Of a DNA stretch of 64,000 bases, positions 107-56,770 are shown piece after piece. The notes beneath the pieces are model-generated. The model was not told the origin of the DNA, searched no databases, and worked only from the letters and a program-made list of their open reading frames with translations. This stretch comes from Patellaria atrata CBS 101060 (taxonomy: Eukaryota), in assembly GCA_010093705.1 (NCBI GenBank), contig MU006093.1, positions 1,323,301 through 1,387,300 of the forward strand. Reading direction: 5' to 3'. Numbering within the stretch: the first letter of the stretch is position 1; every line of letters begins with the position of its first letter. A program made the position numbers and the translations under genes.

Positions 107-1141
107 ATGGATGATCCGCTTGAACAAGCTCCAGCGGCCCTTCAGCTGCAGAACTCCTCCACCCAACCGTCTTCCACGATTCCCGATAGCGAGATCCGCA
201 ACACCACCACCAAAGAAAACCTACAAGGAGCAGCCAAAGGAAACATTCGACAACCCATGGAAGACGACGCAGACAAAACAACACTCTTTTCACTGCGAGC
301 CCGTCCAACCCTCGTCACCATCCCTCCCGAAATCCACCACGAGATCCTCAACTACCTGCCCTCTCCCTCCCTCCACATCCTCTCGACCCTCCACCCCCGC
401 CTCCAAGCCCTCCACCACGCCCACATCCGCCACTTCCTCTCCCTCCCTTCACCCCTCCCCCACACGATCGCCCTAACCCTCGGCATCGAAACCGGCGTCC
501 TCGCCTACCGCGACTGGGACACCCAGCGGCGCTCCCCCTTCTACTTCAAATTCTCCTTCGGCCACGACCTCGAATGGTTCTTCCCGGTGCTTCCCTCCTT
601 CCACGTCACCGGCGCCCTCACGGAGAAGCTCCGGGCCCACGACCTCGACGCCGTCCGTCGCGTCTTCGCTGAGTGCGATAGGGCGCTGCATGTCGTCGTG
701 GCGAAGATGATGGCGGGGAAGCCGGACTGGACCTTTGCGAGCTTCGGGGATGAGACAAACGAAGACATCCGCGCTCAGGAAGCCGAGGCGCGCTTCTCGA
801 CCGACCAATTTGGACCTGGTGTGCCCACGCCGCCGGACTGGCGGGATGAGGAGGTCACCGGCGCGGACTGGGTCGAGACGCTGCGGTTGCTGAGGAAGTG
901 GTGTCGGTGGGAGTGCTTCGGACGGGTGTTTGAGGGCAAGACGGATAAGTGCGTAGGGGAGGGGGTGCATGAGAGGGAGACGTGGCTCGTCAGGAGGGAA
1001 TTGTGGCGGTGGTTTTGGGGGGATGCGGTTAGGGAGGGGCGGTTGGCTGGCGGGCCAAGGGGAGTGAGATCAGTTGAGGAGGGTCAGGGCCGCACAGGAA
1101 TGGTGGGGATGAGATACGGAGAGGGGGTTTTTTGGCTGTGA
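107..1141 (+). CDS. F-box domain protein, otherwise uncharacterised
   Basis: Single-exon ORF with first in-frame ATG at 107. Motif LVTIPPEIHHEILNYLPSPSLHILSTLHPRL fits the F-box consensus (L..LP.EI...IL.YL....L..L). Confidence 0.6.
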   Translation: MDDPLEQAPAALQLQNSSTQPSSTIPDSEIRNTTTKENLQGAAKGNIRQPMEDDADKTTLFSLRARPTLVTIPPEIHHEILNYLPSPSLHILSTLHPRLQALHHAHIRHFLSLPSPLPHTIALTLGIETGVLAYRDWDTQRRSPFYFKFSFGHDLEWFFPVLPSFHVTGALTEKLRAHDLDAVRRVFAECDRALHVVVAKMMAGKPDWTFASFGDETNEDIRAQEAEARFSTDQFGPGVPTPPDWRDEEVTGADWVETLRLLRKWCRWECFGRVFEGKTDKCVGEGVHERETWLVRRELWRWFWGDAVREGRLAGGPRGVRSVEEGQGRTGMVGMRYGEGVFWL

Positions 1142-1389
1142 AATTGTTGGACTAAGGTGATAAGACTATCTTAGAACTGCAGGACGGATTAAAGCTGGAA
1201 GTTTTATGTATAAGGTACTTGGTGCATAGACGAATAAAGGTTGGACAATGTATAGAAGTGACTAATTGGAATGTTCTATTGCTAAGCTAGCATGTACCAA
1301 AATGCGAATACAATAAATGTACACTATTGAGGTTTCTTACCCTCTCTAGTCCTTGTCCACCCCTTTTGTATACTTACATAGGAACGTTA

Positions 1390-7587: not shown

Positions 7588-8233
7588 ACTATCGTCTTTC
7601 ATTTCCTGTCCTTTCTTGGTGGCCCAAAGCCGGAGTTCGATCCTGCTCTAAGTGTAATTTTACCTACGCTAAGGGCACATCTAAATGGAACCTGTTGTTG
7701 GCGTCAGATCAAGGCTGGGTTTATAGTTTCCATTCGTCCTTCTTCCGTTTATCATTTTCCTCGGTGTTTTTGGCCCGTGGATATGTCTTATAAGATTTTG
7801 AATATACTAATGATTACCCAGACCGCGATTACTTTGTGCTAGAATGCTCAATTGTTTAATATCTCTAACATGCATTTTTCATACAGTTGGAGATTATATA
7901 ATGTACACTTTGCTGTCACATCACTATGGTATATCAACTATATGCCTCATTGAATGCTCCGCTGTTTGCCAACTACTGCGCCATACCTCAGTTTCCCATG
8001 CTCCTATGTTCATTATGCCAAACTCGCTACTCGTACATGAAAGTATATGTACAGTGGACATGATCCAAACTCTGGTTTTGCCGACTCACGGTTCGGATGA
8101 AATGTATAAAAACCTGTGCGTAGGTGCAGTCCTATGCAGCCGCATCATCCTGCAGTTCTAAAACTGTAGGAACAAGTAGTAATGACGTTCAGATAGAAGA
8201 GACTGAATGCTCCCACTGTTCGAGATCCTCGAA

Positions 8234-8778
8234 TTACTTTTTCTTCTCTGCAGCTTCTTTAACCGCGTCTAACACACCCACCGTCTTTTCCTCAAATTTC
8301 TCCGCCAACTGCTTTTCTCGCTTCTCCTTCGCCGCCCTCCTTAAGGACTTGATCTCTTGGTTCTCCCGATCTCTTGCCTCCAACTCCGCAATCCACTTTG
8401 CATGCTTCTCCCTATCCGCCTTCTCTTTCACCACCGCCTCGAACTCCTTCCGCTTCACTCTATCGCTTTGCCAGTAAAAGCTCCCTGCGACAATCGCTAC
8501 CAGCGTGAAGCCTTGTGCGTATATTCTTCGTCGGAACATGCGGTTTGTCTGGTGATGGTCGCCTTTGCGCATCGCCTTTGAGGCGCCGATGAGAGCCCAT
8601 ATTGTTAGGGCGCAGCCGAACGGGATGAGGGGCTCTTCCCGGAGACGCCGAATGAGCTTTTGGGGGCGAGATTCTTCATAAAAATCACTATTTCACGGTT
8701 AATACGGGGTCAAGTGGAAGGGGGATGGGAGGCGAACTGGTTGTCGTCGAAGGACGAGGGTAGGGGAACTTCGGACAT
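8234..8778 (-). CDS. RCF1: Respiratory supercomplex factor 1 (HIG1 domain)
   Basis: MSEVPLPSSFDD | DFYEESRPQKLIRRLREEPLIPFG...MFRRRIYAQGFTLVA, the HIG1 signature; one intron. Confidence 0.93.
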
Positions 8779-9088
8779 GATGATAGCACCAGATTGAGGT
8801 ACTTTCGAATCGAACGAGCAGGAGGTTCAGTGAACAGATCGAGGAGAATGCGGTTAAATTATAGAATAGAGCTTTATTAAGTGGTTTCAACGAGGGGGGA
8901 TGTTAAACATCCCTCGTCTTCTTCCAGTTCTGACAAACTCATGAACTCATAGAAGCACAGACATCTTGGCAGTGCGGCCAATCTTTCTGCCGGCACTTTG
9001 CATTTTGCATGCAGATATTGTGAACTTTTTGCGCCGCATTACAGAAAGGCCCTTCCGTTCAAAGGAATAGCTTGACACTGCAGATATT

Positions 9089-11214: not shown

Positions 11215-12081
11215 GGAAAAGGGCATGGGGTTTTGGTGTATTTCATAGGGTGCATATCCACCGACAATCATGAATTGCGTAACATGCTAGTTCAGCTTAA
11301 ACGTCTATCACAAGTCTACTCGTCTTCATACCTTTGACATGATATCTCTTCTCCTGTCACAATTTCTATTCCTTGACCTCTATTTATTTGTTGAATCTCT
11401 TTGGTACCCTGTGTATGTAAGCTTCAAGAGAGGTCCATAATTTATTCAGGAAACTGAAACAGTACGCTTACGAACTCCCAACTTTCTCATATTAGGGATC
11501 AGTTTACTGTACAACAGCAAACCATTGTTGCAACACCACACTATCATTATTCTGGATGCATACAGTAGTAGAGCTACTACTGTAAGAAAAGAAAAAACAT
11601 GAAACATGATTCCCAGGTTTTAATTATACGATCCCCCGGCCTTATATTTACACATTATTGGACGGGAGGGCTTAAGACGATCTTCTAGAAAATTAATTTA
11701 ATATGGGAAAAGAAGCCGTACTCCTCTTGACACCTCGACTTTTGCACCTTTTTGACACAAAGCTTTGATAGACCATCTCAATGACTCTCCTCCGTATGGG
11801 ACAGATATACCAAATGATAATTAGCAAGCAAGTTATGCGTTGCAGGACAAGTATACCCTTTCACGGGCGCATATGCCACCTAGTATATAAGTCGAAACAA
11901 CGGTAAGTACAAATATTTCCAGCATTTCTTCTACTCCTCGATTGCTCCATTCGATAGTAGAGTTTCCCTCTTCTCCTACACGTACGTCCATCCTCTACAT
12001 CCTCGATACGCGTGCTCACGACACGCGTTCCCTCCACCAAAACCCCCCTCATCAACTACCTCCACTCACCTCTCCTCCGCA

Positions 12082-13013
12082 ATGTACGCCCTATACACCC
12101 TCCTATCCCTCCTCCCCCTCTCCGCCTACGCCATCGACGGCCGCCCCAACGGTCCCCCGGCCAAACCCGCCCCCACCGTCCCCGAAACCTTCCACTGGAC
12201 AAACCCATGGGGCGAAGACGTCTCTCCACCCATCGACCTCGAGCCAGCCTGCGACGTCATCGCAACCTACAAGCTAAACCAGCACCTCCTCTACGACGTG
12301 CCGATCATGCCACCGCTAGGTTTCCAGCCCTACGCCAAACACATGAAGGCCTTCTTCGGCTCGGCGGAGTACCCGGGCGGCTGGGAGGGCCTCGACCCGC
12401 ACGGCAGCGACCGCGTCCTGCTCGCCATGAACTGGACCGACGTCCCGAACGCCGTCAAGGAGTGGGTCCTCGAGAACGAGGCCGTGTATGATAGCTTTTG
12501 GGACCGGCTCGGGGAGAAAGTCGAGGGCGGTAGGAAGGGCAGGGGGTTGTATAGTGTGTATAAGAGGGCGACGGGGTTCGAGGAGGAACCGGATATCTTA
12601 CCCGCTCATGGTGTTTGGGAGCATGATTTGTTTATGGTGTTTAGCCCCGGCGCGATCTATGAGATTGCGCCGCTTTGGGTCGCGAATGAGNNNNNNNNNN
12701 NNNNNNNNNNNNNNNNNNNNNNNNNNNNNNNNNNNNNNNNNNNNNNNNNNNNNNNNNNNNNNNNNNNNNNNNNNNNNNNNNNNNNNNNNNGGGTTTCGGT
12801 TATAGCAACTTGCTGACGATTGTGATAGATGCGTTCCTGGATCTCTCTCGGTATAGCTCCGAATGGAAGGACGGCGGTGTTCTCGCGTGGCCTGTTGACC
12901 ACGGCCCGGAACCGGATCGGTTCAAGAAGGAACGCCAGATCGAACTTGCCGTGCAGGGACAGGTGCTCAAGAAAGTGGTGGACGATTACCCGGAGGGGAA
13001 AGACGAGCTCTGA
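12082..13013 (+). CDS. Secretory-pathway protein of unknown function with C-terminal KDEL; interrupted by the assembly gap
   Basis: Signal peptide MYALYTLLSLLPLSAYA. ORF is open up to the N-run. After the gap, branch point GCTGAC and acceptor TAG (12828) lead to an exon ending ...YPEGKDEL*. Confidence 0.75.
12691..12790. other. Assembly gap (100 N, true size unknown)
   Basis: Run of exactly 100 N. Confidence 1.
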
Positions 13014-13310
13014 GTAACCTGACGCGTTTGATGATCACCTCGCGGAGGAATTGTACGATAAAAAGCATGGACTCATTGCGGTATTAGAATGGATGGATGG
13101 CGTTGGGGGTGGTATGCCCACACTCACAGCATAGTTAGCTGTGCTTTTTTCTTCTTATTATCACGAGACCGTTTTTGTACATATCAATTCGGATTCAAAT
13201 CGGTCGTCCACATACTTTTCCATTTCCTTCATGATATGCAATGTAATAACGAAAGCCTGTGTGCCCAAAAATCCCTCCAGCCTTACATCGTACTTTCTGC
13301 AATCCAGGTT

Positions 13311-15279: not shown

Positions 15280-15975
15280 AGATTCCAAGGACATCTTGCT
15301 TCGGAGAAGTCCAATATTATACCAATATAATGCCACCCACGAAGTGATCATACATTCATATATCCAATCAGCTACAAAGACCGAGTAATCAGACTGATAT
15401 GGATAGTTTTCGACTTTTCAAGAGAGAATTGATCCATTTTTTGCCGCAGAGACTCGCTACTAATGAGCATACCCACCGAAGAAACCCCGATCACAACCCT
15501 CATGTTGAACTTTGCGATTCGTAAGAACTAACGTACTACTCGATGTCGCCCTGAATACAGACCTTGGCTCCAACTTTGACAGTATGGTTCATATATTCTA
15601 GTTAGCTGAGTCTCTAGTAAACCATTAAAGTGGTCATATTCTGAAAGAGAGGAGAAATAAAGACAATCCAGCAATCCATGGACAGTGTGATTGATCCAGC
15701 ATACCATGTCCCAAAATCGATATAGAATGGTATGATAGCTCCAATATTCGATACTTAATCCTTAAGCTATATTTCATAAGATTTTCCATAGCAATTAAAT
15801 GTGACTTGTATTCTCATTACGGAGTACTCCCACTGCTCATAAATAATACTGTACGATACGGTACCTGCATCCCACACTTTACCCCTCCCAGGCTAGTCCC
15901 CCACAATACAATCCTCCCACCAACCTCAACCGACCTCAGACCCTTTCCTGTTCCCCAAAAGCCACACAACCCACA

Positions 15976-16448
15976 ATGGCAGAAGAGCCACAGCCCTCGA
16001 ACATAACTGCAGGAGCGGAAGACACACCCTCCCTCCCCTCCAACGCCGAAGACCGCAAAGCGGCAGCCGCTCTCTCCGCGCTCGACACGCGCGGCGCCGA
16101 CGATGACGCGGGCGAGAACAGGAAGAACGTCGACTCCGAGGCGCTGGGACAGGCGATGAAGAATCTCGATCTCGGAAAGGAGGGGAAGAAGGATGAGGAG
16201 GTCAAGAAGGTCGTCAAGGTCGATGCGGGGGATGTAAAACTGTTGGTAGGTTTTGTTGGCTTTCCTCTTGGTTTATGGAGGGGGGTTTGGATAAGGATGG
16301 AGGGAGCCGGCGTAAAATTAAAGAGCTGATTTGATTGGAATAGGTCGAGCAGCTTGAACTTTCCAAGGTGAAGGCGACGGAGTTGTTGAAGGCGCATGAT
16401 GGGCATGCAGTTAGGGCTATGGTTGCCTTTGTGCAGGCGTCGGCTTGA
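15976..16448 (+). CDS. HYPK-like protein (C-terminal UBA-like domain), 2 exons
   Basis: AEDRKAAAALSAL...VKVDAGDVKLL|VEQLELSKVKATELLKAHDGHAVRAMVAFV matches the HYPK UBA pattern; intron GTAGGT...TAG. Confidence 0.85.
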
Positions 16449-16963
16449 ACAGATATGGTATATTGCAAGAATGTGGTTGCGTTGTGCTTGAGGGCTTCCT
16501 GGTGCATGAGTTAAGGGAAATTGAGCAGAGGACTTGAGTGTTGGATCAATTCACCATAGGATGTCACCTGCGCCAGCTTTCCTCGATTCACCTTCAGACG
16601 ATATTCGCACGAGAACGATCGTCCGATATCGGGATTGGAGAGCATATATGCCGAATGTCTTGCTCTCTCGGGGGAAGAGGCCATGAAATCAAGCAGGGGG
16701 CAATGGGACCGCTATGTTTGGTGTTCGTACCAGTATTGAAATATCACGGCGAAACAAATCAAGAGAACATGCTTTGGATAATCGTCGTCTCAGTTTATCG
16801 TCCTACATATCCAGATGCCCAACACCACATGATCCACTACCCCAGCTAATTAAATCCGTACTCCATTAATGTTCAAACACCTCCGGACGCTCTCAATGCA
16901 GTCTAATCGTTACTCATTTATGCACAAGATTTCACAATTCATGTAACAATCTGAGAAAAGACT

Positions 16964-19900
16964 CTAATCCCAATCCATCGTCTGCCCCAAGGTCACACCC
17001 AAACTTCTCCTCTTCCCGAAGTCCAACTTTTTGACCGGACTCTTCTCTTCAAAAAATCCCTTCCTAGTCTGTTTTGGTGGGCAGGTCATCTGGACAAGAT
17101 CACCCTTAAGATAGTAGGGGGTACCTGGACTGTCACCAAAGCATGACGCAACAGTGAAGTTCTCTTTGTCAACACTCTTTAGGGAAGCTGGTGTCGTATT
17201 TAACACCAACTTAGGCGTCTTGATGCCAGAAAACGGTGTTGTAGGAGCGGACTTCGCAGTCTGCTTCACGGAGCTTGAAGTGAACGGGGTAAACCGCACT
17301 GGAGAATGAGTAGGTGTTGTGTTTGCGGAGAGTGTGGCCAGGGGTTGGGTGGTGCTGGGTAATGGAATGAGATAACCGGATTCAGGAACGTGAGCATTTG
17401 CTCTCTCGCATCTATCGTTATTGTTAACACATGGTTCGCAACTAAAAGTGTTGGAAAAAAAACTTACGCCATAGCCCAACCTATATTGACACACTTGATC
17501 GCACCGTTGCTGAATGCTACTTTGTCAAGGGTACGCTTGCTGCCATCTTTGAACAATACATGAGTGATACTCTGGTTATCATTCAACCAATGAGATACGA
17601 CCCTAGCGCCTAGGTCAAGAAGGAGAGGGATGAAGAGATTACTCGCGTCCCTTCCATCATTCTCGTTTACGTCGACGTAGACGACTGTACCAGTCAAGAC
17701 ACCCTTCGTCATGGCCTCAGAAAGTGGTGTATTTGTCTCTGCGTCCCAAGAGACGTTCTTCTTCGGTGATTGCTGAGCATTCTTGCGTGGCGATCGTAGA
17801 GATGATTTCCGAGGCGAGATAGAAGGACGAGCCCCGGGAGTGACAGCTACCGGTTCTAAAATGATCGGTTGGAGTCGCAGCTCTGGAGTCTTTGAAACAT
17901 CATCAGATGTAGATTCGTATGTGTGCTCCTCTTCCATCTGCACCGTACGTGATAACCCTGGAGTCTTGACTGGGGACACATTTGCAAAATCCATAATTGC
18001 GATTTGTTCCTCGAATTCATGACCTGCAATCTCCGGAGTATCGTGCGGAGTTCCGGGAACGAGAGAGAACAATTGAGATGCATGTGTCTCCACGGCTTTC
18101 GAAGGCGAGGCTGGAGGTGTGGTGCTCTCAAGCTCCGCGTTTTCTTGCTGTTGTTCTTCTGTTTCTAGGCACACTTCTTGCTCTACCTCCACTTCCATTG
18201 ACTCATTTTGCCCTTGAATGTCTGACTCAAGCAAAGCTTCCGCTTGAGCATTCAGGAGAGACCTTTGAAGTAGGCTCTTCCTACCCTTTAACGGTCCACG
18301 GGCAATTTTGGCGGGGGATGCCGTGCGCAAGATCATCTGCATATCTGCCCGGGCTCTACGCGGAGATGCCTTCACTAAGGAGGTCTTGAACGGACTATTG
18401 TAATCCTCAACAGTAGGTTGAAGCTCCCTTCTAGAAGCTCTTTGGCTAGCGATGTTGATCTTACGTGGAGAGCTTCTCATGAGAGTGGCCTTGAACATGT
18501 TGAGTCCGTCATCCGTGAAGAGCGCTCGAGATGGCTGAGATGAAGAGACTTTCGGAACAATAGGTGCCTTGCGAGGGGAAGTTCTCAAGAGAGAGTGATT
18601 GAGAGCTGGTGCGTTCACATCTGCCGAGAACACCGACTGTGACGGAGTATTCCTGGCGTCGACTGCAGCTTTGCGAGGGGAGTGCTGCATAGGTACACTT
18701 CCTTCGGCTTTTACAGCTTTTACAAGAGAATAAACAGCTTTACGGGCCTCTGCTGGTGGTTTACGCGGCGAGGTTTGTAGCAGAGAGCCTTTCATCTGAG
18801 CTGTTGAATCCGAAGGATGTGTAGAGCCCATTGGTGCTAGTTTCAGAGTGGAAGAAATAGCAACCTTACGTGGGGATAGCCGAAGTAACGATGGACCGAA
18901 CAGGGAATTCTTATTGGGGGAAACCAGACTGGATGCCTTGAACGGCGAGCAAGGCACAGATGCCTCTAACGTTGGAAGGATAGGCGCGAATGCTTTAGCT
19001 GACGGTGGAGGAGGTGCCGTCAACGCTGAACTGTGTTCCAGAGGTGTCATAGGTCGTTCACTAGTTGTAGTTCCTAGAGTTTGTAGAGCAGGCTTCGTTG
19101 GCGAAAGTCGCACTGATGCTTCGAATGCGTTCCACGCTGGGGTTTTTATAGCAACAGTGGTTTCCACTTTTGTGGAGACCACCTCGATCACTTCAGGCGG
19201 ACTGCCAATAAGATCATCAGTGGCTGTTTCATGGTGCGCGTCTACCATTTCCAAGCCCTCTGAGGACTCAACTTGTGAAACTTTCTTTGCCTTTGTAGAT
19301 GCCTTGATCGTCTTCTTGACTGAGGCCCTCTTAGTAGTCTTCTTTGCTGCTGAAGCAGCAGTCTCTTTTGCCAAAGCTCCTCGGGTTGAAGTGACCGGTG
19401 CTGGCGGTCCTTCAACTCCGTTCTGTCTAGTAGATCGCGTCGTTGCTGGAGCTGCTTTAGCCTTTGTCGCCATCCTCTTTGCCGCAGGCGCAGCTGGTGG
19501 AGGTTCTTTCGCAGCACGTTTCCTTGTAACCGGTGGTAGGGATTGTAAACGCTCCTCCTTTTGGATCTTTTCCGCTTCCTCTTCGAATGCAACCTTCTTC
19601 GACGATTTAGTACCGACCTTCTTCGTCGGTGCTGTCACCACGTTCTTTTTCAGTTTCGTCGTCTCAACCACAGCAGCTGGTTTTCTTCCTCGCCTTGGAG
19701 GCGCTTTCAGCGGTTTTACTTCATCTGTTGTCGAATCTTTTGGCGCTCCTCGGGTTGTTCGAGATCTCGTTGTGGTCTTCGCTGGGAATTCTTCTTCCTC
19801 TGCCTCTAGAGCTGGTGCAGGGATCACGACCGACACTTTCCCGGCCTTCTTCTTTGACGCGCCTTTCTCTTGTTTTGCGCTGGTAGAATGGGATTCTTCG

Positions 19901-38819: not shown

Positions 38820-40764
38820 GGTAGGCGAAGCGGGTGGCGACGTCCGCGGAGGGACAGATACTCCGACACTGGATCTATTGCTCGTAGGGCTGGTGGGGGT
38901 ATTTGGGAGTGTTTGAACAGGTTGAGCCCAGTCAGGTATTCGAATCCTCACATGCCTTGGTTTTCTCGATCCAGAATCAGTAGACCTCTTAGGCTGCGAG
39001 AAACGGCGGTCCGAGGAGCTGGAACTACCACTAAGAGCGCTATTAAAGCTATCGTGTAGACTAAATTTTGCTGAGTAAGGGAGGCTATCAAGGACTACAA
39101 TAGGCACATAATTGGGTATAACAATAGGAATATGCTTTGGTCGAGTTCGAGCTACTGGAAGGTGAAATGAGCCAGGAGAACAGATGTTAGGGAGAGCTTG
39201 AAGTTTATCAACAGATTGGGATTGCCACGCATCGGGGACCGGTACAGGGCGTGGAACTGGGCGTTCTTCTTGCGTAGCCTCAGCCCTTTTGGCCGTTGGA
39301 AATTGGGGGTTTCTCCAATAACGAAGCCACCTGTGAGATTCGTCCGGCAGACCAGCTGCGTGATGTGTAAAATCTCCTATTTGAAGCATCGTTAGTTCGA
39401 AGAGATTCGTTTTTGAAGAGGTATCAGCGACGGGAAGAGAATCAAGAGGAGAAAGAGGATGCCCACTTGAGGTCTCGCGCTATTCAAGTACCTCCACCTC
39501 AGCCGATGTCTTCTCAATCAATCCCGACAAAAATGTGTGTCATTGGAACGGCTTGTCGGTAGAGATAGTTTCGGGCGGCAGCAGCAGTCTTGCAGGAACA
39601 GGTAACGAGACACGACCAGGTCGCCGCGTAAAGTGAGATTTATGGAGATGAGATGCTGTGCAACTGTGGGGAATGACGGAGAGATGTCTTGAAAGTTGTG
39701 CAGAGGAGATGCAGAGACGCCAGGAGAAGTAGAGATGTGCTTCACGAAAGGAACGCGAGGGATAGAGGTACAAAGAAGCGGTGGTTTTCCTTTCTTACCT
39801 TTCCTCCTTCTGGATGCACACGGTACGTATACCTTACAAACTCAACCCAAGGATAAGGTTAAGGATGGGTTGTTATTAAAACCTTAAAAGGCTTATCAGA
39901 AAAATTGCCAAATAGCGAAAAAAGAATATAAGAAGTAAGGATTATTGAATTAATGGGATTAGAGGATTCATGCTGTTGGACGCACAGGGCTGAAGAATTT
40001 TTGGAAATTATTTTGCGGACAAGGGACAAACTTTCGATTACTACGGGTCAAAAATTCGAGCCAAAGGAGTCGATGTGGAGAGTTTTTAGCATAAGGGAGC
40101 CCTTGGAGATTCCAGAACACTGAAAATTGAGGTGTAGCCGCCGTACTATTACGCTAACACTTCCGTTTTATTGTGGGTTTGTATCGCCACTTTTCCTCAT
40201 ACAGTTAAAACATACGATTTCCCTATATTCCGTACCAGTCGCTTAAACTCCTTTCGGAATTGAACACCGTAAAGTAATATAAATAACCTTTCTCTTCCCG
40301 TCCTAGGTAGCCACCTCTCAATCCCCAAAAGCCTCCTTCCCGCTGCTCTGGATTCTCGACGTTTGCAACTGTTTTGGTACCACCAAAAGCCCAACCCACA
40401 AAAATAAAAGAAAAAGATCATTAATCTCCGAGATCCAGATTTCTAAAAAAAAATTGATACGACGGATAAAGTGGTCAGTCGTCACATATACAATATATAA
40501 CATGAGAAATATTTATTTGCATTGTATACCAGATTTATTGCTATTGCTACTCAGGAGATGACCGCGTCGCCTGCTGTCGACCCGCGTCGTCCTCTTCTGT
40601 AATAGCCGCATTGAGCCGCCGCGCATAACCGATCTCACGGCCTCTCGGGCGGTGTTTGCACCGTTATTGTCTTTAAATTGCCATGTCCATGCCATCATCA
40701 GCTTTAAACTCTCGATCCCGCACCCGGCAACCCCAGCCTACCGGTAATTCGTTTGCTGTCCTGC

Positions 40765-42506: not shown

Positions 42507-44084
42507 CTAAAGTCCTTGAAACCCCTTATTCACGCATATAGCGACGTCCGCAAAACTTACGATCCGATTATGGCCTCCATACGGGAGCAATTCAAACTCA
42601 ATTCTCACACCATCCGCTACGAATCTCTCTAAAGTCCCGTCTCCTTTCTTGATAACTTCTTTTCTCGACTCGAATTGGAAATTTGAAAGGCCTTCAAAGG
42701 AAGTTGCGTTGGCGGTGATCCGCAGGAGCTGCCCCGAGTTTCTTGGTGAAATGTTATAGTCATTTCGAGCATGAATCAATTTGAGATTTAGCTTTGGCCT
42801 AGATGACTTATTATGTGCAATATCTAGTTGAACCATTGCTTCATAATCTTCTTCGCCATCAAATGAGGCATGGTAGGCGATGCCTTTGTGTTTGTGTGAT
42901 ACCAGAGACACAAGCGCTTTCAGACGGGATTCAGTCTCCCATGTATCCACAATCATCCTTCTGAAAAAGGACTGAATCCGTGGGTATGGTCGTAACGAGG
43001 AAAGAATTGGAATGATTCCGGCGATGCGGTAGCTTCCCATGAGATCAGGCATGCTCGTGAAAGGAGCTATTAAAATTACGCTGGCGAAATCAGTCCCTTC
43101 CAAATTCATGACCCCCTTTTCAACCCCAGTCGGTATCAGGCCGGTGGAGTTGTCCGGATCCGCGAAAGATAGTGCAACGGCGCTCACAACAGCTGTCCCC
43201 AGCGACTGACCGAGGAGTATGATTCGCGATGCGGGTACATGGAGCGTGTCTATCGCATAGTTCACGAGGGCGATCCCGTCAGTGATGAGCCCAGCTTCGG
43301 TAGGACTGCCTGTGGAGTGTCCATAACCTCTGTAATCTAGAGCGAGTACATGAGTTTTAGGAAGTGCAGTCAAGGAAAGATAAGAAGCGGTGCGCCATCC
43401 TTGAGCGACATGACCAGCATTCTAAGAAATGTTAGAAGTGCAATTCGAGCGCGTAAAATATCGACATTCCCATGCAAAATTCTTGGGTCTGATTCTTCCT
43501 CACAACATCGCCGATGTTTCGAAATAAGGGGATGATGACGGGATAGAAACCTACTCCATGAAGATCGATAACCAGCCGGGCTCTAGGATCATCACTCAAA
43601 AAACGTAAATTGCTTGCAATGGACGAAAATTCCTCATCCTCATCGATTGGTGATGATTTAGACTCCAGAATCTCCTGTTCGTTCTGGCCGTATGTGTCTA
43701 GGGAGAGTACGTGCCAGGCTGAGAGAATCTCTCCGTCGGGCGTGCTGACATTGAATGGTGTGACTTGTTTGCCTGATTAATATTTTTAGCCCTTGGAGGT
43801 CCTTTGTCCTAACGTCTATCTCATCTCTAATTTAACCATACTTGCGAATCCAAAAGCTTCAGGTCTTGCATAATTAACCCACCACCCACTAAAGAGCTTG
43901 TGGGCGTACAAGGCGCTGTCGAGCGGATGAGTATCAATGCCTAATTGAGACTTTATACGGCTGAGGTATCTTACTGGCGCTGTATCCATGTATTCGACAG
44001 AGCTGATAGAAAAATTATGTACACTGCACCTACACCAGCAAGTGTCCAATAAGCTTTCTTTATTATGGGGCTGAGAGCTACCAT
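42507..44084 (-). CDS. ABHD12-like membrane-anchored alpha/beta hydrolase, multi-exon
   Basis: N-terminal TM (MVALSPIIKKAYWTLAGVGAVYIIFLSAL), PEAFGFA, TPDGEILSAWHVL, DYRGYGHSTGSPTEAGL, nucleophile GQSLG, C-terminal GGHN. Confidence 0.88.
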
Positions 44085-44902
44085 TGTTTTACTTCATCTG
44101 GACGGATATATACTGTACTGAGGTGTACAATAAGCCCGGATGTTGCGGGATCCACGGGCAAGAGTGCAATTGTGTCTGCCTTTTGTCAAGATACCTTGAT
44201 AAAGCCCACTTGTGAAGAAATTTTCAAGGATAAATTTAGGGTAAAAAGTATTCGAATCACGTAACTAAAGAAAGGGTTGATAGTTTTTGAGAAGAGTTGG
44301 GATGATGATGAACAAGAGTGAGATTTGTTGTAGTGTTGAGGAAGCATGGCACAGCTGCCTGATAAGGTAAAGTGATGTGCATATGAATATCACCATACGA
44401 CGGGAGAGATGGGATGGATAGAGACAAGCTGAGATGACAATAACCAAAATTTCTACAATTGGATTTTTATGAGCTTATTATTTTCACCATGTCTGTAGAG
44501 GATAGTACCATCCACCTTGCAGGAGACCTTAATATCTTAAAGCGATATCTTTCTATTTGGGTGCGAATCGTACCTTATATGTACTGTAACGCGCCTCGAT
44601 TCATCCCAACATGTCGGCCAATAATCTCCAACTCCCACCTCATTCACTAATTTTCGCCCGATATTACCTGGAGTCTTGCTTCTTACCTTTGCCGAGCACT
44701 TCTTGAAAGCTGTGCCTCGTTCACCTTCCACCTCAGCCACCTCACCTGTCACCGTTTCCCATCTCCAACCCTCTTTGGAGGTTAACTTCCTACCGTCATC
44801 CAGCAACCCACCTTACCGTCCGTATTGTGCCACCTTCTCCAGTCCACGTTTATACGATACCGTTAGAAGAGATATTTTGTTATCCGTTACGGAAACTTTA
44901 TC

Positions 44903-46573
44903 ATGACTGGGGAGAAGCGTAGAAGCTCTAGGTCGTTACGAGACCGAGGAGAGCCACCAACAAAGAAGCGAAGCACAACGCCAGTGAAGGCAACACTAGT
45001 AAAGGAAAAAGCGAAAGACCTAGAGCCAGAGACGCCTGTACCAGAACCTATAGTTGTCAAGGATGTTGTACCTACGCTACCTACGAAGGTTGTTGAGGCC
45101 AGACCCATCCCTACAGTGGACGAACCGCAACCAGTAGATCTGTCTCCAAAAGACTATCAATCATTTGCTCAGAGGTAAGACATGCGATCCCTATTCAATT
45201 GGCCTGCGTTGACATTTGCTACCTCCAGTCGTGTCTTATCCTCCGCTTTGGAACGTTCCCGCGCACGATGGGCTGTCGACGGTATCTTCGAAAAATACGT
45301 GACCAAGGTGCCTCACAGGAAGAAGACCTTCACCCCAGAACAAGAGGAAGAATGGAAGACCGCCAAAGCTTTAGAAAAGGAACTATGCGGGTCTATGAAA
45401 AAGCTAGGGGATTGTCAGCTTACCATTGAGCCGCACGTCTTCAGCGTAACTCTATATCAAAAGAAACCGGAGGATCTCAAAAAGTCCCTGTCACATCACA
45501 ACGCACGCACAACAGATGGACCGGTAGTGCAATACAGTGCGCCCCCGTATCAAAGTTCATACCCGTATTCGCAGACACCGCGATCACAACAAGTTCCACA
45601 ACAACCTCCAGCAGGTCAGCCAGTCTCAAATGGGCCAACCTCAATTCCGGCCAGCACACCGCAACACGCTCTTGCACCAGCCGCATCAACCGCGTCCGCG
45701 AACGCTCCCCCAGCTCCAGACCCAGTAATCCATATGCTCGCCCAGCGCGCCACTACCGACCCAGAGCTCAAATATGTCATGAAAATCGTCGCCGCAGGTG
45801 AAGCCACCGAGAAGCAACTGAAATATTTCCAAAAGCACATCGAAGAATTCACTGCAGTGCTCAAATCCCGCGAAGCCGCCGCATCTACCGCTCCTCCCCA
45901 AGTTCCCCCAAGCCCCGCGGACACCGCATCTCCTGCACCGTCCGCCCGTCCTGTCACCTATCGCCCCGTGCAAGTTCCTCTTCCATCTCCGCAACCTTCC
46001 CTACAAACTCAGCCGACACCACCACCTAAACCAGAACCGAAGCCCCTCTTCATCGAATTCGTCCTCAATGGGGACCGCTTCCTCTTCCCCCGGTCTTCCA
46101 TCCTTGAATACCTCCCTGACCGCACCGTTCTGGCTTCATTCCTCGTCGTGCTCCGCGGCTCCAAATCCGCCTCTCCCCACTACGACCCCGAAACAGACTA
46201 CTACCAGCCCGTCACCGTGCGCTTTGCCGCCCAGGATCCCGGTATCCTAGGTTGTTTAGCGCAAGCGGTCGATCCGGTAGAGGAGGTAAGGAGGTATATG
46301 GATGGAGTTATGGACGGATGTAGGAGAGCGGAGTATGTGTGTTTGGCGGCGAGGTTGCCACTGAAGGGGGATGGATTAGAGGAAGAAGATGCGGAGGCAG
46401 TTGGGGTGAAGGGAAAAGAGAAGGAGAAGGAGAGGACAGGGACGCCTGTTACAGGGAGTAATTCTGCAACTCCCATCGCTGGGGGGACTCCGGTGTCGGT
46501 GGGTCAGGGTGAGAAGAGAGAGAAGAGGAAGTATGTTAGGAAGACTCCCTTGAAGGTGGAGCAGACGGTTTAA
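44903..46573 (+). CDS. SWC3: SWR1 complex subunit Swc3-like, 2 exons
   Basis: PQPVDLSPKDYQSFA|..VLSSALERSR...GIFEKY, DPVIHMLAQRATTDPELKYVMKIVA...FQKHIEE, GDRFLFPRSSILEY, YYQPVTVR match Pezizomycotina Swc3 as recalled. Confidence 0.75.
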
Positions 46574-47227
46574 GTGGGCTGGGACTAGAAAGCCGGCAGT
46601 ATGATCACGTAGAGTTGGAAGGTATTATAGGGTTATGTATGGGTTATTAGGTTTTCTTCTAGGCATGGGGACATTATGGTTGCATCACTGCATGTACGGA
46701 CGGAATGGGAAAAAGGGATTTGGGTTGATACCACCGCCGACGGGGACCCTGCAGAGGGAGGTTCCGTGTCGGTTTCGTCATGGCGCATCTTTTTCACTTC
46801 TCCGCTTTGTATTCGAATACCGTATTTGGTGCTTAGGTTGGAGTAGAGAGACCCTTTGTCACACCACACCGGTCATCATCGTAATACGAAACAGAAATTT
46901 GCCTTCATGGCCCCTTGTTACTCTTCGAGAGGCCTCCTGTCCTTTGTGTAGCTATTATCAGAAAGATCATGAAGTCATGGAGGTGAAAAAGAACCATGAA
47001 GTGGAGAAATGCCTTCCCGTCCCATACCTACCCCGTCCAAGCGCCTAAAAGACCCCCTTACATCCAGAGAACCAATAACTTATTACCCACGTTAAACCCC
47101 ACTTCTAAACCTCTATTCCATAAGTTAGTAAAGAACGTAGATCCAACCCGACTTATTCCCCACCACCTAATCTTCGAGCATCCAACACAGCGCACCCATT
47201 CCCGTCCCGGTCACCGAAAAAAACACC

Positions 47228-49297
47228 CTACCCCATACTCCCACCACTCCTCTCCCCAATCAACCCCGCAAGCCTCAACAACTCCCTATCCGTCTCCCTA
47301 TCCCCGGTACCGAGATTAACCCTCCTCCTCCTCTCCGCCTCCCGCTCCTCCCAGTCCCAAACCCGCCGCTGCAGCTCCGCCGCCTCCTCCCCCCCGAGCC
47401 CCCAAACCTCCAGCTCTTGTACCTCAAAGCGGTCCTGCCAATCCCCCTTTCCGGAATTTTTGCGACGGGGGAGTTTCGACGGGGAAAACGACCCCCCACC
47501 CTCGGCCCGGTGCGTGAAGACGGCGAACTCGAGCGCGGAATCGATGTGCAGGCTCACGGGGCCGAGGGGCACGAAGGGGGAGACGTGGGCCGTGTGGCCG
47601 GGGACCGGGGAGCCAAAGCCCAGGCCGGGGTGTGGGGAGGGGTGTTTGGCGAAGTAGGCGTATGCGGGGGTCGGGTGGTGGGGGATGGCGGGGAAGAGGT
47701 CGTGGGTTGGGGCGAGCTGGAAGAGGAGGGTCGAGGCGTCGGAGAAGGGGTGTTTGGGGGTTGTTTTCCAGGGGCCGGGGATGTAGGCGCCGTATGTGAC
47801 TGTTGCGGTTGAGGAGTGGGGGAGACGGGAGGGCGGTAGGGAGGAGGTGAAGGGGCGGGTTGAGGGAGTGGTGGGGTGGGGAGGGAGGGTAGTCCCAGTT
47901 ATGAGGAGGAAGGTTGGTTCACGCCAGTTGAAGACGTGCTTTTCGAAGGAGCCCATGCTGAAGCCGTGGGTGCTGCCGGCGTAGAGGGGGTGGAGGCGCC
48001 GGAAGAGGGAATGGTTGGGGAGGATGAAGGAGAGTTGGCTTATGGTGCTGAGGTTTAGGATCTCGCCTGGGTTGGGGAGGACGGGGCCGAGGGGCATGGG
48101 GTTGTCGGCTGGCCACTTGATAGATGTGTTTGAAGCTGTGCGTTTGGGAGGACCGAAGTTGTCGGACATTCTTGATGACGCGGTTGAGGATCTTCGTCTT
48201 GAGAGTGGGAACTCGGGTAGCCTGTTTGATGCATTTGAGGACCGACGGCTTGACCGTTCGAATCGTTCGAGATCGTTTTCTCCCCTAGGTGGCGTAGATG
48301 ATCGGGAGTTCTTCCGTCTGGAGAGGTCGAGATCTTTAGCGAAAAGGAAGTGCTCGAATAGGGGCCGAAGTGCGTCGAATAGACGAGGCATTGCTGCTGA
48401 AACGACTGCATCAAAAACTTTGAATGTAGTACCAGGGACATTCTCCACCTCAAAAGATGAAAGGACGTGTTGAGCCGTCTCTCGAAGCTCCTCGATTCTT
48501 CTAGGAGATAGTTGTGAGGTATAAGTGGCTATATCTTCCACCGGCTCCAAAGGTGCAATTAGAAGGATGAACTCGATTAGTCTTAACAGGTTGTCCGTAG
48601 GAACAATGGAATGGTGTACATTCGTTTTTTCTCCAAGTTTAAAGACTTCGTCTATATCCATCATATTCAGGTTGGCCAGAATCAAGTCGTCTTCATCATC
48701 TTCCGCTCCTTCTTCACCAGCGGCAGCATCCACTTCGAATCTCAATTTCGAGTCGTTGCGTCCATCTATACGCTCCGTACCTGCACTCGTTCTATCTTGA
48801 GTCTCATCTGCCTTGTCGTCTACGTTCTTATCATAGACAGCGAGACTACGGTATATCTCCCTATGCCATGCTCTTTTGTTTCTCTTGCTAACGACTTTGC
48901 CCCATCGCTCGGTTAAGATGGTAACAACCTTGATTAAGGCATCGTTGGTCAATATTGCTGGTGCTTGACTAGGGAAAGGAAATGCACCTAGGTATCCTGC
49001 CATCTGGAAAATGACAGGACCTACTGCAATGGCATCTGGAAGCTCTAGGAACTTGCATAATGTGCTTTCACTCCAATATCTCAAGCCAGATTCAGTATCG
49101 CAGAGAGACCTGAATACCTCCTTGAAGCAATAGAGCTCAAGGGGAGTGTAGCATTTCGTTGCGAACGCCTCGCTAAGATGGCGTGAGAGCTGCTCTATTG
49201 GAGGTCGTCAGTTTCACATGTTTGTACCTCTGAAGCTTTAGGTATATTTACCAGTTGAGAGCTGCTGCGGCTTTTCTACAGATGGACCTTGTCCCAT
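47228..49297 (-). CDS. RTC5: TLDc-domain protein Rtc5, 2 exons
   Basis: Myristoylation-type start MGQGPS, FATKCYTPLELYCFKEVF, YLGAFPF, TLDc motifs LYAGSTHGFSMGSFEKHVFNW, LFQLAPTH, LEVWGLGG, WDWEEREAERRR. Confidence 0.9.
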
Positions 49298-52155: not shown

Positions 52156-54529
52156 ATGTGGTCTAAACCAGCTGTTGGCCTTTCATGGCTGTTTACCATT
52201 CTCCTGATCACTCAGAGTGTTATCGCCAGCGCCGGTTTCCATGACGCCCCAGCTGAGGTCCATGACGCGATTAAGAGAGAGGTTGAGGCCCGCCAGGCTG
52301 ATTTAGATGCCGAACATGAGAACCTGTTTGGCAAGAGACAGAGTGGCTTCAAGGCCGTCACTGGTGTTAGGAGCGGTATCTACCCCCGTCTGGAGATCAG
52401 AGAACTCGAGAGGAACGCCGACCAACTCACCCTCTACACTCTTGCCCTGCAGCGGATGATGGAGCGCCCCAATAGCGACAAGTTCTCTTACTATCAAATC
52501 GCTGGTAAGTATTGAAAGTCATTTCTTGAGTAGCTTCATCTCATGTATCATAATAGGTATCCACGGTCGTGAATTTCAAATGTGGGATTCCGTTCGCGGT
52601 ATCAGGTCCTCTGGTGGCTACTGCCCTCATTCTGCAAACATCTTCCTGCCTTGGCACAGGCCTTACCTAGCTCTTTTCGAGCAACTGGTCATTGGTTGGG
52701 CTAATACGATTGCGAATGAGTATCCCTCAAACGTTCGCGCAAGATACCGAACCGCTGCGAGCACTCTCCGTATGCCATACTGGGACTGGGCGGCGGCACC
52801 AGCCAACGGCAACACTGTTCCAAACATTGTCCGAGCGAGCACCATCCGCTTGAACACCCCGACTGGATCCCGTGTCATTAACAACCCGTTCTTCTCATAT
52901 CGTTTCACCCAGAGACCCGCTGCGCTTGGTAGCTCCCCCTTCAACCAACGTATGAACACGCTTCGTCACCCTACCAGCAATGCTGTCAATGCTGCGAGCA
53001 ATAACAACGAGTTCCTGTCTGATATGAACCGCAACAGGGTCGGTCTCCGTGACCGTCTGTACAGACTTTTCACCCAGCCCTCGAACTTCATGTCCGTCGG
53101 TACTTCTTGTGTTGGTAACAACTGCGGCAACACGCAGTCTCACGACAGCTTCGAGTCTACCCATGACGCTATCCACGCTATCTCTGGTGGTTCTTCCGGT
53201 GGTCACATGTACTACGTTGACTTCTCTGCCTTCGACCCAATCTTCTGGCTGCATCACACTAACGTTGACCGACACTTCGCCATGTACCGCTATCTCCAAC
53301 CCAACAGTTATGTTACCAACGGCGCTCTGACCCAAAACAACTATGTCTGGAACCGTGGCGACGTGAAGAATGCCTTCAGCGATCTCCTCCCCTTCCACAA
53401 GGATACTCAAGGTCGATTCTGGAACTCTCAAGATGTTGCTGGAACTCGTATCCTCGGTTATGTCTACAGGGAAATTTCTGGAAGCGCAAATGCTGCTAGC
53501 GTTCGTAACGATGTCAATCGTCTCTATGGACCCAATGCTAGCGGACGTGTCAGGAGGCGACAGATTCCTACGACCGGCTATTACTATGGTGGTAACAGCA
53601 CGTACGGCAACAACACTAGCTGCAACGCCACCGAACCGATCAAGGATTACACTGCAGATTTCATCGCTGATAAGCACGCCATGGGTGGTTCTTATAACGT
53701 CTACGTCTTCCTTGGTAACTATAGTGCTGAGGTCTCTCAATGGTTCGGCGAGAAGTCCTACTGCGGTCTCTATTCCGTCTTCGCTCCCCTTAGCGGTGGA
53801 GACTCTGGAGTGACCGTTACTGGCCAAATTCCTCTCAACACAGCTCTCATTTCTGCTTACGACGCTGGCCAACTTGACTGTTTGGATGACGCCTCTATTA
53901 CGAAGTACATCAAGGAAAACCTTCACTGGGAGGTCGTCAAGGTAAATAGCTCCCTAACTCGTCTTCCTCATTGGACTGTCGATTAACATTCTCCATAGGC
54001 TGGTTATGAAGTCGTTCCCCCGACATCTTGCCCAGGTCTCGAAGTTGCCGTTTCCCGTCAGGCCTATACCCCTTCCCGCGGCACCAGCGACTTCCCCATC
54101 TATCACGGCATTCCTGAGGTGGTTCCTGACTGCACCAGCGGCAAACCTGCGGGTTACAGCGGTCCCAAGCGTGGCCGTGGTTACTTCGATTACTCTAAGC
54201 CCTCCACCGCACCCCCCGCAGGCTATCCTGAGTATGCCCCTCCCCCGGTTGACTACCCTATCCACTACGAAAATGGCCCAGCCCCCGTTGACTATAATAA
54301 TGGCCCTGATTCTGAGTGGCATGGCGAGTACCCGTCTGAGAACCCACCTCCCTACGATGATGACGAGCCTGATGCGGGTGAGCCGACTGGTACATACACC
54401 TACTCCGAAGCTTACCCGGCTCCAACCGGCTTCTGTGCGGACGAGTGTGGTGAGACCGTTATCAAGTATGTTGACGAGCACGGCCAATACCTCTACGAGG
54501 AGATGCAACCATCGTATGGAAAGATGTAA
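52156..54529 (+). CDS. Secreted tyrosinase / type-3 copper oxidase; exons 52156-52504, 52557-53941, 53999-54529
   Basis: Signal peptide and propeptide ending KR. SYYQIAGIHG, CuA YCPH...FLPWHRPYL, LRMPYWDWA, CuB ESTHDAIH...SAFDPIFWLHHTNVDR, YxY motif (LGYVY), C-terminal shielding domain, extra Tyr-rich tail. Confidence 0.95.
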
Positions 54530-55855
54530 TGGGGTAATGGAGCTGTCAATAGGAAGTGGGTGGTTGAATGTAGAATCTGTTTAGAGGTCGAGTTGGATTC
54601 TGACCAGGAGATGTAATTGTAAGGGAATCTACGCGAATACAGTCGTATGTTGATAACCACACCACACGCTCACTCACATAAAGCTTGCATTGGGAACGGG
54701 TATACCCAGAGAAATCTTCTCTTCACGACTATGGGATCATTAGGGGCTAAGGCTTATTGCTTCTGTTTTTGTTCGGTATCATATCCTCTAATTCGTACTC
54801 ATTGTAGATACAGCCGCATGAGGGTTTGGATCTGCTGGGATTTTTGCTGGCATCTTTTGTTTAATTCATGACTGTTCTGGGATTTCTAGGTGGTGAGGAT
54901 TGGAAGATTATTTTGTAGTCAACGATTGTGAATTTTTATTCAATACTTCTTCCTGCCTCTTTTTCTCACCTCTCGGCTTCAACGTGAATGAAACCTCCCC
55001 ACGAAACACATGATCTTCGATCTTACGGTGTAAATCTTTTAAGGAGTAGTAAGCCAATAACTCTGATATAGTTAGTGCTCAGCCGCACTTTTATGGGGAC
55101 CAATTACGGATGTTGGCACATCGTAGATTCGTAATTTGTGAATCAGGATAGCGGCACTGACTCATGAAACGAGTTCAAGATTACTGTTTCTTGATTTTTC
55201 CTTTTGAAGGCATGTTTCTGCTGCTTTTCCTCGTACCTGGTCGGCCTTGATATAATTATCCTTTTTTGGATGTTATAGGATAGTAATATGAACAGATAAC
55301 AGAGGTCAAAAATCATGTCACAACTCACAACCCGTATTACAGCAACAAGCACGAGCGAGAAGTGCGTTGCTTTCATTTTTCTTGAGTGGAGTTTACCGCC
55401 AAACTCCACGCTTTCCTCGGGTTACGAAACGCTATTGTTTTCAATTTTGGTTAAATAGTGGAGACTTTCCTTTTTCTACTTTGAGGCTCACAGCCTCGTG
55501 GCCTCGTGGCCTCACCTGATGATTTTCTTAGTTCCCTTGGAGTCGTTCTTGATTCTTGACTCCTCGGGATCTTCCATAGTTCGGAAGAAACAAACACGGG
55601 ATACTGTATCAGTTCTTTGGTATCATGACAGCTGTCGGTTTGTAACTTCTCACGTGAAGGGTGGGATGGAGGAATACAAGTACGTCAAGAATGAAGAAGT
55701 AGGAGGTAGTTCTACGGTACTGTACGAACGAACTCAGTCTATCAATATTTTCCAATACTTTTACCCTTTTACATCGTATCTTTCTTACCACCATCCACCT
55801 CTTCAACCGTCCCATCTCCCCTTCTTTGTCGTCAACTCCACCCTTTATCCATCTC

Positions 55856-56770
55856 CTACGCCTCCTCAACTAAAACCCCCTCTCCAGGCAGCATGGTCCC
55901 ATTGTTTATCGCCGCCGCATGTGCCCTCGCCAACATCCCATAGACCGGATAATAAGTATCCAACCAGGGAATCACCTCCAGCGCACCAGGCGTGTTCCTC
56001 CAATCCCGCATCAAGTCACAGACGATCGCGAACAAGGACACGACCTGCACGCCAGCCGAGCGCATCCAATCGTTCGCGCTGTCCCGGATCAGCTCGGTGG
56101 TGGTGCCGGACGCTTCGACGTTAGCCCAGACGCTGTAGCCTTCGGCGCGCAGGGAGAGAGCGAAGAACGCGGTGCCTGAGACGACGTCAGTACCCGTCAC
56201 TGGGCTTGATGTTTGGGGAGGAGGGAACACATACAGACGTCCGTCACGATGCCGCCGATGATGATCTGCTTCTTCCCTGTGGCGCGGATGGCATCGCGAA
56301 CCTCAGTGTTATCCCAGGCGTTGACTTCGCCGCCGCGCATGATGAGAGGCGCGTCGGGGTACATTTCGAGCATCTCTTTTGGAAGAGGGCCGTTGGGACC
56401 TGTGATGTAGCCGTCAGTTATACGTTTATTCAGACATAGGTAGATATTTTTTTTCGGTGGAGAGAGGCTTACCCCATTCGGCAGATGTGGTCAGGATGGT
56501 TGGGATGTCGAATAGCTTGCCGATGGCTGCGTGTGCCATCATGTTGTTCTTGTATAGCGTGGCGTCGAAGTCCCGGACGAGGTTGTAGAGCCCGACTTGT
56601 TGATCGAGGATAATCAGGACGGAATTGTTCTTGTCTAGACGCTCCCAGGGGACGGCTGTTCGACTGTTAGTACTGATAGTGTCGACAGCGCCAGAATGGA
56701 ACATACCATCAGCGAAGACGGAGCTCAACAGGCCCAAAAATGGGATCAAGCTTGATAAACTGAATTTCAT
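55856..56770 (-). CDS. Isochorismatase-family (YcaC-like) cysteine hydrolase with signal peptide, 3 exons
   Basis: MKFSLSSLIPFLGLLSSVFA; ERLDKNNSVLIILDQQVGL, PTILTTSAEW|GPNGPL, RGGEVNAWD, KKQIIIGGIVTDV|CTAF, NVEASGT, ELMRDWR-like motif. Confidence 0.9.

Follow-up and report, generated by a model that had tools for sequence, protein, structure and literature searches.

In most fungi, genes have a coding strand biased towards C and then, near the stop codon, towards G (McLean and Tirosh, 2011, BMC Genomics 12:638, PMC3315797). In the part of that study available here, the bias is described as reaching into the untranslated regions (UTRs), as present at fourfold-degenerate sites, as shifting amino-acid usage and as significant in only part of the genes; AT skew is roughly uniform and positive, GC skew and GC content are negatively correlated, and the data set has two Dothideomycetes. 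The same part of the text gives no established cause and puts forward two hypotheses, a mutational regime that varies with transcriptional phase and an avoidance of C as an adaptation. A related pattern, C-skew around the transcription start sites of plants and fungi, is described in the accessible part of Fujimori et al. (2005; PMC555766). Here, a 64-kilobase (kb) stretch of nuclear DNA from the filamentous ascomycete Patellaria atrata CBS 101060 (contig MU006093.1, positions 1,323,301 to 1,387,300; “the window” below, with an overall GC content of 0.484) was compared with these systems. It contains 11 islands, about 1–1.5 kb in size, in which the forward strand is strongly C-rich and then turns G-rich, each of them with its switch shortly before the stop codon of a gene; about a third of the genes end in this way.

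The islands agree with the pattern of McLean and Tirosh (2011), as far as the available text of that study describes it, in sign, in extension into UTRs, in presence at fourfold sites, in their effect on amino-acid usage and in affecting many but not all genes. They are unlike it in being discrete and not gradients along whole genes, in their fourfold skew of 0.4–0.8, which is accompanied by high silent-site GC, and in that one of them, in the gene RTC5, has its switch fixed at one codon across distant species. With the genes of Fujimori et al. (2005), again as the part seen describes them, they share an excess of C over G on the coding strand of fungal genes, but the skew in that study is anchored to start sites and that of the window islands to gene ends. 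No description of discrete mirror-image islands, or of conservation of a switch at an orthologous codon, was found in the open-access literature, the nearest being these same two studies (PMC3315797, PMC555766). We think it quite probable that gene ends are what the islands are anchored to, and that the published skew and the islands are one phenomenon. They would then be a strong, GC-enriched and gene-specific form of a known pattern, to which the window adds new descriptive constraints.

Position of the islands at gene ends

A switch score was calculated as C minus G over the 400 nucleotides (nt) to the left of a position plus G minus C over the 400 nt to its right, and peaks of at least 120 were taken as strong islands. 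There are 11 of these, at 670, 8505, 12363, 16138, 29653, 30704, 34976, 36484, 46249, 47509, and 56135, or one per 5.8 kb, with a top score of 286; in 200 shuffles within 2-kb blocks the top score was 110 and no peak reached 120. Skew at the peaks runs from -0.35 to -0.62 in the left arm and from +0.19 to +0.59 in the right, and GC in each 800-nt peak window is 0.50–0.64, above that of the window as a whole. Within the islands A exceeds T in the C-rich arm and T exceeds A in the G-rich arm. A first-pass annotation of the same DNA had already listed 11 switch points, and all are recovered here to within about 120 nt; its further remarks, that the C-rich arm is also A-rich and the G-rich arm also T-rich, and that an assembly gap (12691–12790) falls in a G-rich arm, that of the island with its switch at 12363, are likewise confirmed.

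All 11 switches lie 74–650 nt upstream, in the sense direction, of the stop codon of one of 24 genes whose stops were mapped by Pfam and by inspection of open reading frames (ORFs). Positions 0–700 nt upstream of any of these 24 stops make up 26% of the window, giving a binomial P of 4e-7 for 11 of 11. The sense-downstream G-rich arm is fairly uniform in length, at 335–791 nt (median 532), and ends 63–457 nt beyond the stop codon, while the sense-upstream C-rich arm is 164–1126 nt long (median 646) and is the longer of the two in seven of the 11 islands; beyond the arms, skew is near zero or reversed. The same course is visible in an average over 22 genes, where mean sense skew is -0.13 and then -0.16 across the stretch from -900 to -300 relative to the stop (the second value is for the bin from -600 to -300, negative in 17 of 22), +0.22 in the last 300 nt (positive in 18 of 22) and +0.20 over the 200 nt that follow the stop. 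Ten weaker switches, with scores of 70–119, are divided evenly between positions 101–533 nt before a stop codon (five) and gene interiors or unannotated DNA (five). Each island thus corresponds to the last 1–1.5 kb of a protein-coding transcription unit, or to the whole unit if the gene is shorter than about 1 kb. On the sense strand, a C-rich (and A-rich) stretch of about 400–1100 nt is followed by a G-rich (and T-rich) one of about 500 nt, the change coming about 300 nt before the stop codon and the second stretch running on into the 3' flank.

The first-pass annotation had described the islands as ignoring gene orientation, and as independent of genes and of transcription. The former is true only trivially: a C-rich stretch followed by a G-rich one is its own reverse complement and therefore looks the same in genes of either strand, so that the argument from orientation fails, and the islands are in fact tied to stop codons in the sense direction. 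The latter is not supported, given the positions of all 11 switches. Prediction of the switches by distance to transcript ends, together with the lack of a link to origins or hot spots, had been named in advance as evidence against the reading then preferred, and in terms of distance to stop codons the first half of this is what was found.

The reading then preferred took the switches for bidirectional replication origins with a G/T-rich leading strand. Skew reportedly jumps at replication origins in human skew domains, as it does in bacteria, and the polarity on the forward strand, with the left side C/A-rich and the right side G/T-rich, is right for such a jump. The scale is not, being hundreds of bases here as against tens to hundreds of kilobases there: an asymmetry due to forks should extend as far as the next zone of termination, and the arms give way to zero or reversed skew after 164–1126 nt. 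The density of 11 islands in 64 kb, an amplitude of 0.4–0.8, which is far above that usual in replication skews, the position of every centre inside coding sequence and just before a stop codon, and the recurrence of the RTC5 centre at one codon across distant fungi all argue the same way. Of the origin proposal the polarity stands, and we consider the proposal as a whole highly improbable.

In six long genes the island is limited to the 3' part. At the left edge of the window, which clips its C-rich arm, an island at 1–1290 covers the 3' end of an F-box-like gene on the + strand (ORF 2–1141, stop at 1141), with its switch at 670, 471 nt before the stop. The island at 28527–30185 is at the 3' end of PIG-S (+ strand, last exon 28255–29727); its switch, at 29653, is only 74 nt before the stop codon, despite which the G-rich arm is 532 nt long and reaches 457 nt beyond it. 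Convergent with PIG-S is a patatin-like lipase gene (- strand, last exon 30520–31938), with an island at 30209–31203 over its 3' end, where the switch (30704) precedes the stop by 184 nt. A kelch-repeat gene (- strand, ORF 36174–39479) carries at its 3' end the island at 35987–37130, switching at 36484, 310 nt before the stop. A second convergent pair is formed by SWC3 (+ strand, ORF 45179–46573), with an island at 45425–46800 and the switch at 46249, 324 nt before the stop, and the TLDc gene RTC5 (- strand, ORF 47228–49207), with an island at 46946–48467 and the switch at 47509, 281 nt before the stop; across this last switch the peptide changes from one rich in P, T, S, and H to one rich in G, E, R, and W.

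The remaining five islands take in whole small genes or last exons. The one at 8170–8921 spans a small RCF1/HIG1 gene (- strand, ORF 8234–8692; switch at 8505, 271 nt before the stop), and the one at 11658–13154 a gene for a small secreted protein ending in KDEL (+ strand, start codon near 12082, stop near 13013; switch at 12363, about 650 nt before the stop), where distances are approximate because the island encloses the assembly gap. A HYPK-like gene (+ strand, start codon at 15976, intron 16246–16343, stop at 16448) is spanned by the island at 15707–16593, which switches at 16138, 310 nt before the stop, and a gene for a small cysteine-rich secreted protein (- strand, ORF 34737–35210) by the island at 34335–35386, with 239 nt between its switch (34976) and the stop. 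The island at 55719–56299, weaker than the other ten, lies over the 3' end of a YcaC-like (isochorismatase) gene (- strand, last exon 55856–56302), with the switch at 56135, 279 nt before the stop.

A gradient running along the whole gene was considered and is rejected for the long genes, in which the fourfold skew of the rest of the ORF is -0.29 to +0.04 (about -0.09 in the 5' part of the kelch-repeat ORF). With respect to neighbouring genes, an island is present at eight of 12 convergent 3' ends and two of nine tandem ones (P = 0.056 in a one-sided Fisher test that leaves aside three genes whose neighbours are unknown).

Strong switches of the opposite sign, from G-rich to C-rich, number nine, and eight of these are simply the outer edges of the 11 islands. 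The ninth, at 44442 (score -122, in the region 44000–45000), is in a divergent promoter between an abhydrolase gene on the - strand and SWC3 on the + strand, both of which have 5' ends that are C-rich in the sense direction. This agrees with the known C-skew at fungal start sites, and is what the pattern in the accessible part of Fujimori et al. (2005) predicts. A weak C-to-G switch (54431, score 89) was also seen in the unannotated region 53950–54800, which has a GC content of 0.59 and, on either strand, an open ORF of 208 residues; a small gene missing from the annotation, with a weak island of its own, may lie there.

Silent and non-coding sites

For codon counts, the nine islands with a secure reading frame were pooled, the C-rich arm being taken as the 600 nt before the switch and the G-rich arm as the sequence from the switch to the stop codon. 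All eight fourfold codon families favour C in the first and G in the second, and in the remainder of the same ORFs they are even. Alanine codons (GCN), for example, go from G 14, C 71, A 28, and T 14 to G 57, C 4, A 8, and T 9. Over all fourfold sites the totals are C 498, A 142, G 116, and T 95 in the C-rich arm, G 219, T 71, C 61, and A 40 in the G-rich arm, and G 125, C 157, A 195, and T 187 in the remainder. Twofold sites have C 294 to T 61 and G 54 to A 102 in the C-rich arm, and C 57 to T 83 and G 196 to A 37 in the G-rich arm. The two arms are compositional mirror images, in that the strand running 5' to 3' away from the switch has far more G than T, and more T than A or C; the symmetric process suggested in the first-pass annotation is to this extent borne out.

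The skew is also present outside coding sequence. The HYPK intron, 98 nt long and lying in a G-rich arm (its removal gives an uninterrupted HYPK-like protein), has 36 G and eight C, and the non-coding parts of the G-rich arms together have a GC skew of +0.35 and an AT skew of -0.12. Taken gene by gene, seven of the nine island genes have an upstream fourfold skew between -0.36 and -0.83 and, over the last 300 nt, one between +0.24 and +0.83; the exceptions are PIG-S, at -0.26 in the last 300 nt, where the switch is so close to the stop, and the YcaC-like gene, at +0.09 and +0.20. The skew therefore acts on DNA and not through the protein, and the earlier claim that protein sequence does not explain it holds at the synonymous and non-coding sites that had been proposed for checking it.

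Codon positions 1 and 2 are likewise skewed in the islands. Over 167 windows of 60 codons, the correlation between skew at positions 1 and 2 and skew at fourfold sites is weak (r = 0.21), with values of -0.31 for fourfold GC under 0.5 and +0.80 for fourfold GC of at least 0.65, a pattern which implies a regional force on all positions within the islands, and amino acids that are not driving the silent sites outside them. Amino-acid composition as the cause is rejected; the 5' part of PIG-S, for example, has a position-2 skew of -0.53 and yet a fourfold skew of +0.10.

Fourfold GC is 0.6–0.83 in the island arms, compared to 0.36–0.48 elsewhere in the same ORFs. A rise of this kind would be expected of long-lived meiotic recombination hotspots at gene ends, where GC-biased conversion would lift GC over about 1 kb and steps in break repair would leave the skew; the size of the islands is within the range of conversion tracts, and their signature is symmetric around a centre. 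Their centres are within coding sequence, about 300 nt before stop codons, whereas in other fungi hotspots generally lie in promoters or terminators that are free of nucleosomes. In humans, mutation close to breaks has a documented strand asymmetry (Hinch et al., 2023, PMC7615360), and in the part of that study available the asymmetry is, as here, a mirror image on a kilobase scale around a centre. The strand exposed at the human hotspots is, however, the forward strand to the left of the break, which loses C and A; this predicts a G/T-rich left arm, the opposite of that in the islands. Break repair, an alternative raised in the first-pass annotation, thus has the wrong polarity if the human asymmetry applies, the analogy being one across kingdoms, and we regard hotspots as a rather improbable source of the islands.

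Part of the sequence evidence could be taken to mean that the islands are artefacts of assembly or some repeated element (a foldback or hairpin structure, or a CpG island). The assembly gap lies within one of the arms, and contigs rebuilt independently from public reads break in the two strongest islands (36750–36937, 47224–47362, and 47859–47873), with loose ends of homopolymer G or C and a read depth that dips at the breaks to about 260, compared to about 400–440 (run X2). Across six islands, however, the rebuilt contigs and the window are the same, with zero base or indel differences; reads and assembly probably go back to one sample, which means that this excludes assembly error but is not independent biology. 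Two public read runs cover the entire 9.9-kb query, including intergenic DNA, and behave as DNA, and the islands encode conserved protein. The gap, the breaks and the dips in depth mean that the islands are hard to sequence. As to repeated elements, there are no long inverted or direct repeats, the best inverted arms being 32 nt at 72%, and the energy of pairing between arms is about that of separately shuffled arms (z from -0.6 to -3.1, mononucleotide shuffles), by which a foldback or hairpin element is rejected. A CpG island or a methylation footprint is rejected as well, the observed/expected ratio for CpG being 0.80–1.08 in the islands and 0.91 in the window. That the islands are artefacts or repeats of any of these kinds is scarcely credible. 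Visual inspection of 120 nt at each of the 11 refined switches showed no motif common to them; a formal motif search was not made.

Three other compositional features of the window were noted. A tyrosinase gene (52460–53986, + strand) is pyrimidine-rich at fourfold sites over its whole ORF, unlike every other gene in the window, with G 2, C 19, A 5, and T 27 in the last 300 nt and G 7, C 31, A 10, and T 44 from -900 to -300. At 19200–20000, inside a SAP-domain gene on the - strand, there is little GC skew and the sense strand is very A-rich, AT skew on the + strand going down to -0.50. Within the islands there are spurious ORFs of 120–250 residues in several frames on both strands (for instance 47171–47812 on the + strand and 47424–47918 on the - strand), because stop codons are scarce in skewed, GC-rich sequence.

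The RTC5 island in other fungi

After its own entry, the closest matches to the RTC5 protein of the window are from Dothideomycetes, at about 54% identity. A scan of metagenome contigs based on RTC5 alignment gave 42 loci. At the 31 loci with a match reaching the C-terminus, mean raw skew is -0.35 from -600 to -300 and +0.46 in the last 300 nt. When duplicates and loci with too little ORF were dropped, 19 distinct loci were left, in which RTC5 has 41–58% amino-acid identity, with a mean fourfold skew of -0.45 from -900 to -300 (negative in 18 of 19), +0.28 in the last 300 nt (positive in 14 of 19) and +0.03 in the remainder. Twofold sites pooled over 18 loci follow suit, with C 710 to T 249 and G 177 to A 271 upstream, and C 144 to T 265 and G 431 to A 95 downstream. 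The third-position switch in the orthologues is at a median of codon -93 from the stop (interquartile range 80–106, range 2–135), compared to -95 in the window, and in several loci it is at the same peptide, ALEF..F|TH. The switch is thus conserved at one orthologous position. Of four loci with SWC3 orthologues, two have the pattern there as well. Judging by these comparisons, the island is an old feature, anchored to its gene and peculiar to certain genes.

Silent sites in these fungi must be saturated, and persistent selection, in this case on the nucleic acid as such, would explain why the island is found at one and the same codon. In the last 500 nt, the richness in G and T would favour pausing, RNA–DNA hybrids or four-stranded G structures, and thereby termination in a compact genome; the preceding C/A-rich stretch would leave the message free of structure, and any antisense transcript would be G-rich on its account and terminate readily. 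An adaptive explanation is one of the two hypotheses in the part of PMC3315797 available. The convergent 3' ends, where islands are more frequent, could be read in the same way, although that enrichment is not significant, and so could the G-quadruplex motifs, 14 of 15 of which are inside islands and always on the strand running away from the switch, although these follow from composition. Most genes terminate without an island, and with C or G at 56–59% of fourfold sites over hundreds of codons, the islands look more like the result of a regional pressure than of scattered motifs. Selection of this kind seems to us unlikely.

Some further observations concern RTC5 and its surroundings. Its convergent neighbour in the window is SWC3; in four more distant loci SWC3 is instead upstream of RTC5 on the same strand. 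In seven loci (L003, L005, L010, L015, L018, L020, and L040) there is a small convergent gene 250–900 nt downstream, the product of which ends in the motif ...MKVRSSVKKLCDGCK... and is presumably mitochondrial ribosomal protein L36. The public RTC5 protein model is identical to the window ORF in all aligned blocks and differs only by one annotated intron (47 residues, at about 48150–48290 on the - strand). This stretch is in frame, open and rich in Ser and Arg, and the homologue P0074 has residues there; the intron call may be wrong, or the intron may be optional.

Transcription and the source of the skew

The explanation we favour, and consider probable on balance, is a strand-asymmetric bias of mutation or repair that is linked to transcription and anchored to the 3' end of the transcription unit, acting on the DNA and dragging amino-acid composition along. 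That the cause is mutational and not selective is a more tentative matter, on which our confidence is somewhat short of even. In this explanation the strand running outwards from the switch would gain G and then T, and lose A and C, as would be expected under repeated exposure or damage of that strand: where A and C are lost from it through deamination or the loss of bases, and gaps are filled by placing C opposite, the strand should come to have G in excess of T, and T in excess of A and C. Over the final 500 nt the exposed strand would be the non-template one, which would fit a slow or pausing polymerase, or RNA–DNA hybrids, near the termination zone. Upstream of the switch the outward strand is the gene's other strand, and this suggests transcription, antisense or convergent, that comes in from the 3' side; the frequencies of islands at convergent and tandem 3' ends are a weak hint in the same direction. 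Transcription as the cause, the identity of the exposed strand and the chemistry are all things that we infer.

The 3' ends of human genes are reportedly GC-skewed and prone to form R-loops (RNA–DNA hybrids with a displaced strand). The islands are like them in having a G-rich non-template strand at the end of the unit and in being commoner where genes are closely packed, and the compositional feature of an R-loop terminator is present in the fourfold counts of the G-rich arm (G 219 to C 61) and in its flanks, the hybrids themselves being putative. The human ends differ in that they have no paired C-rich arm upstream, inside coding sequence.

Several points weigh against a transcription-linked bias, or at least against a simple form of it. 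It is by position only that the islands are connected to transcription, and a single sense transcript would not by itself predict arms that are mirror images. Nor does such a bias explain why silent-site GC is raised to 0.6–0.83. Compared to what the available part of McLean and Tirosh (2011) describes, two trends are different: AT skew, uniform and positive there, flips here (A 142 to T 95 at fourfold sites in the one arm, A 40 to T 71 in the other), and skew, negatively correlated with GC there, here rises with it (r = +0.37 for the switch score). Only about 11 of the 24 mapped genes have a strong island; the others have fourfold skew near zero, with fourfold GC of 0.32–0.55, so that islands are not a uniform property of 3' ends but are discrete and specific to some genes. 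This is so in the relatives as well, where 27 other long ORFs (chosen on length alone, and some of them perhaps not last exons) have pooled fourfold skews of -0.08 in the last 300 nt and -0.12 from -900 to -300, with just five of the 27 island-like, and where one relative (L037) lacks the pattern in RTC5 and SWC3 alike. The whole comparison, moreover, is built on a small base, a single 64-kb window and 42 loci from relatives.

A more specific form of the transcription-linked explanation, which we put forward as speculative and think rather unlikely, is that the islands are mutational scars where the stream of sense polymerases meets an antisense or read-through stream from the 3' side. Each stream would mark its own strand, which would give mirror-image arms, and the switch would be the usual meeting point; conserved gene order and expression would then hold the scar to a single codon over hundreds of millions of years, RTC5 being an example, and the scar would reshape the composition of the protein. 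If so, silent-site skew would read out antisense transcription and termination zones from the sequence of a fungal genome.

On the practical side, the islands distort amino-acid composition and codon statistics and create false long ORFs on both strands, and are difficult to sequence and easily mistaken for replication origins. The cause of the C-to-G skew of fungal genes has been open since 2011, and the window sets three constraints for any explanation of it: the skew is concentrated at the ends of some genes only, in islands of about 1–1.5 kb that are discrete and enriched in GC; neutral-site composition is a mirror image around the switch, with G in excess of T, and T of A and C, on the strand leaving it; and the switch of RTC5 keeps to one fixed codon in fungi that are distant from each other.

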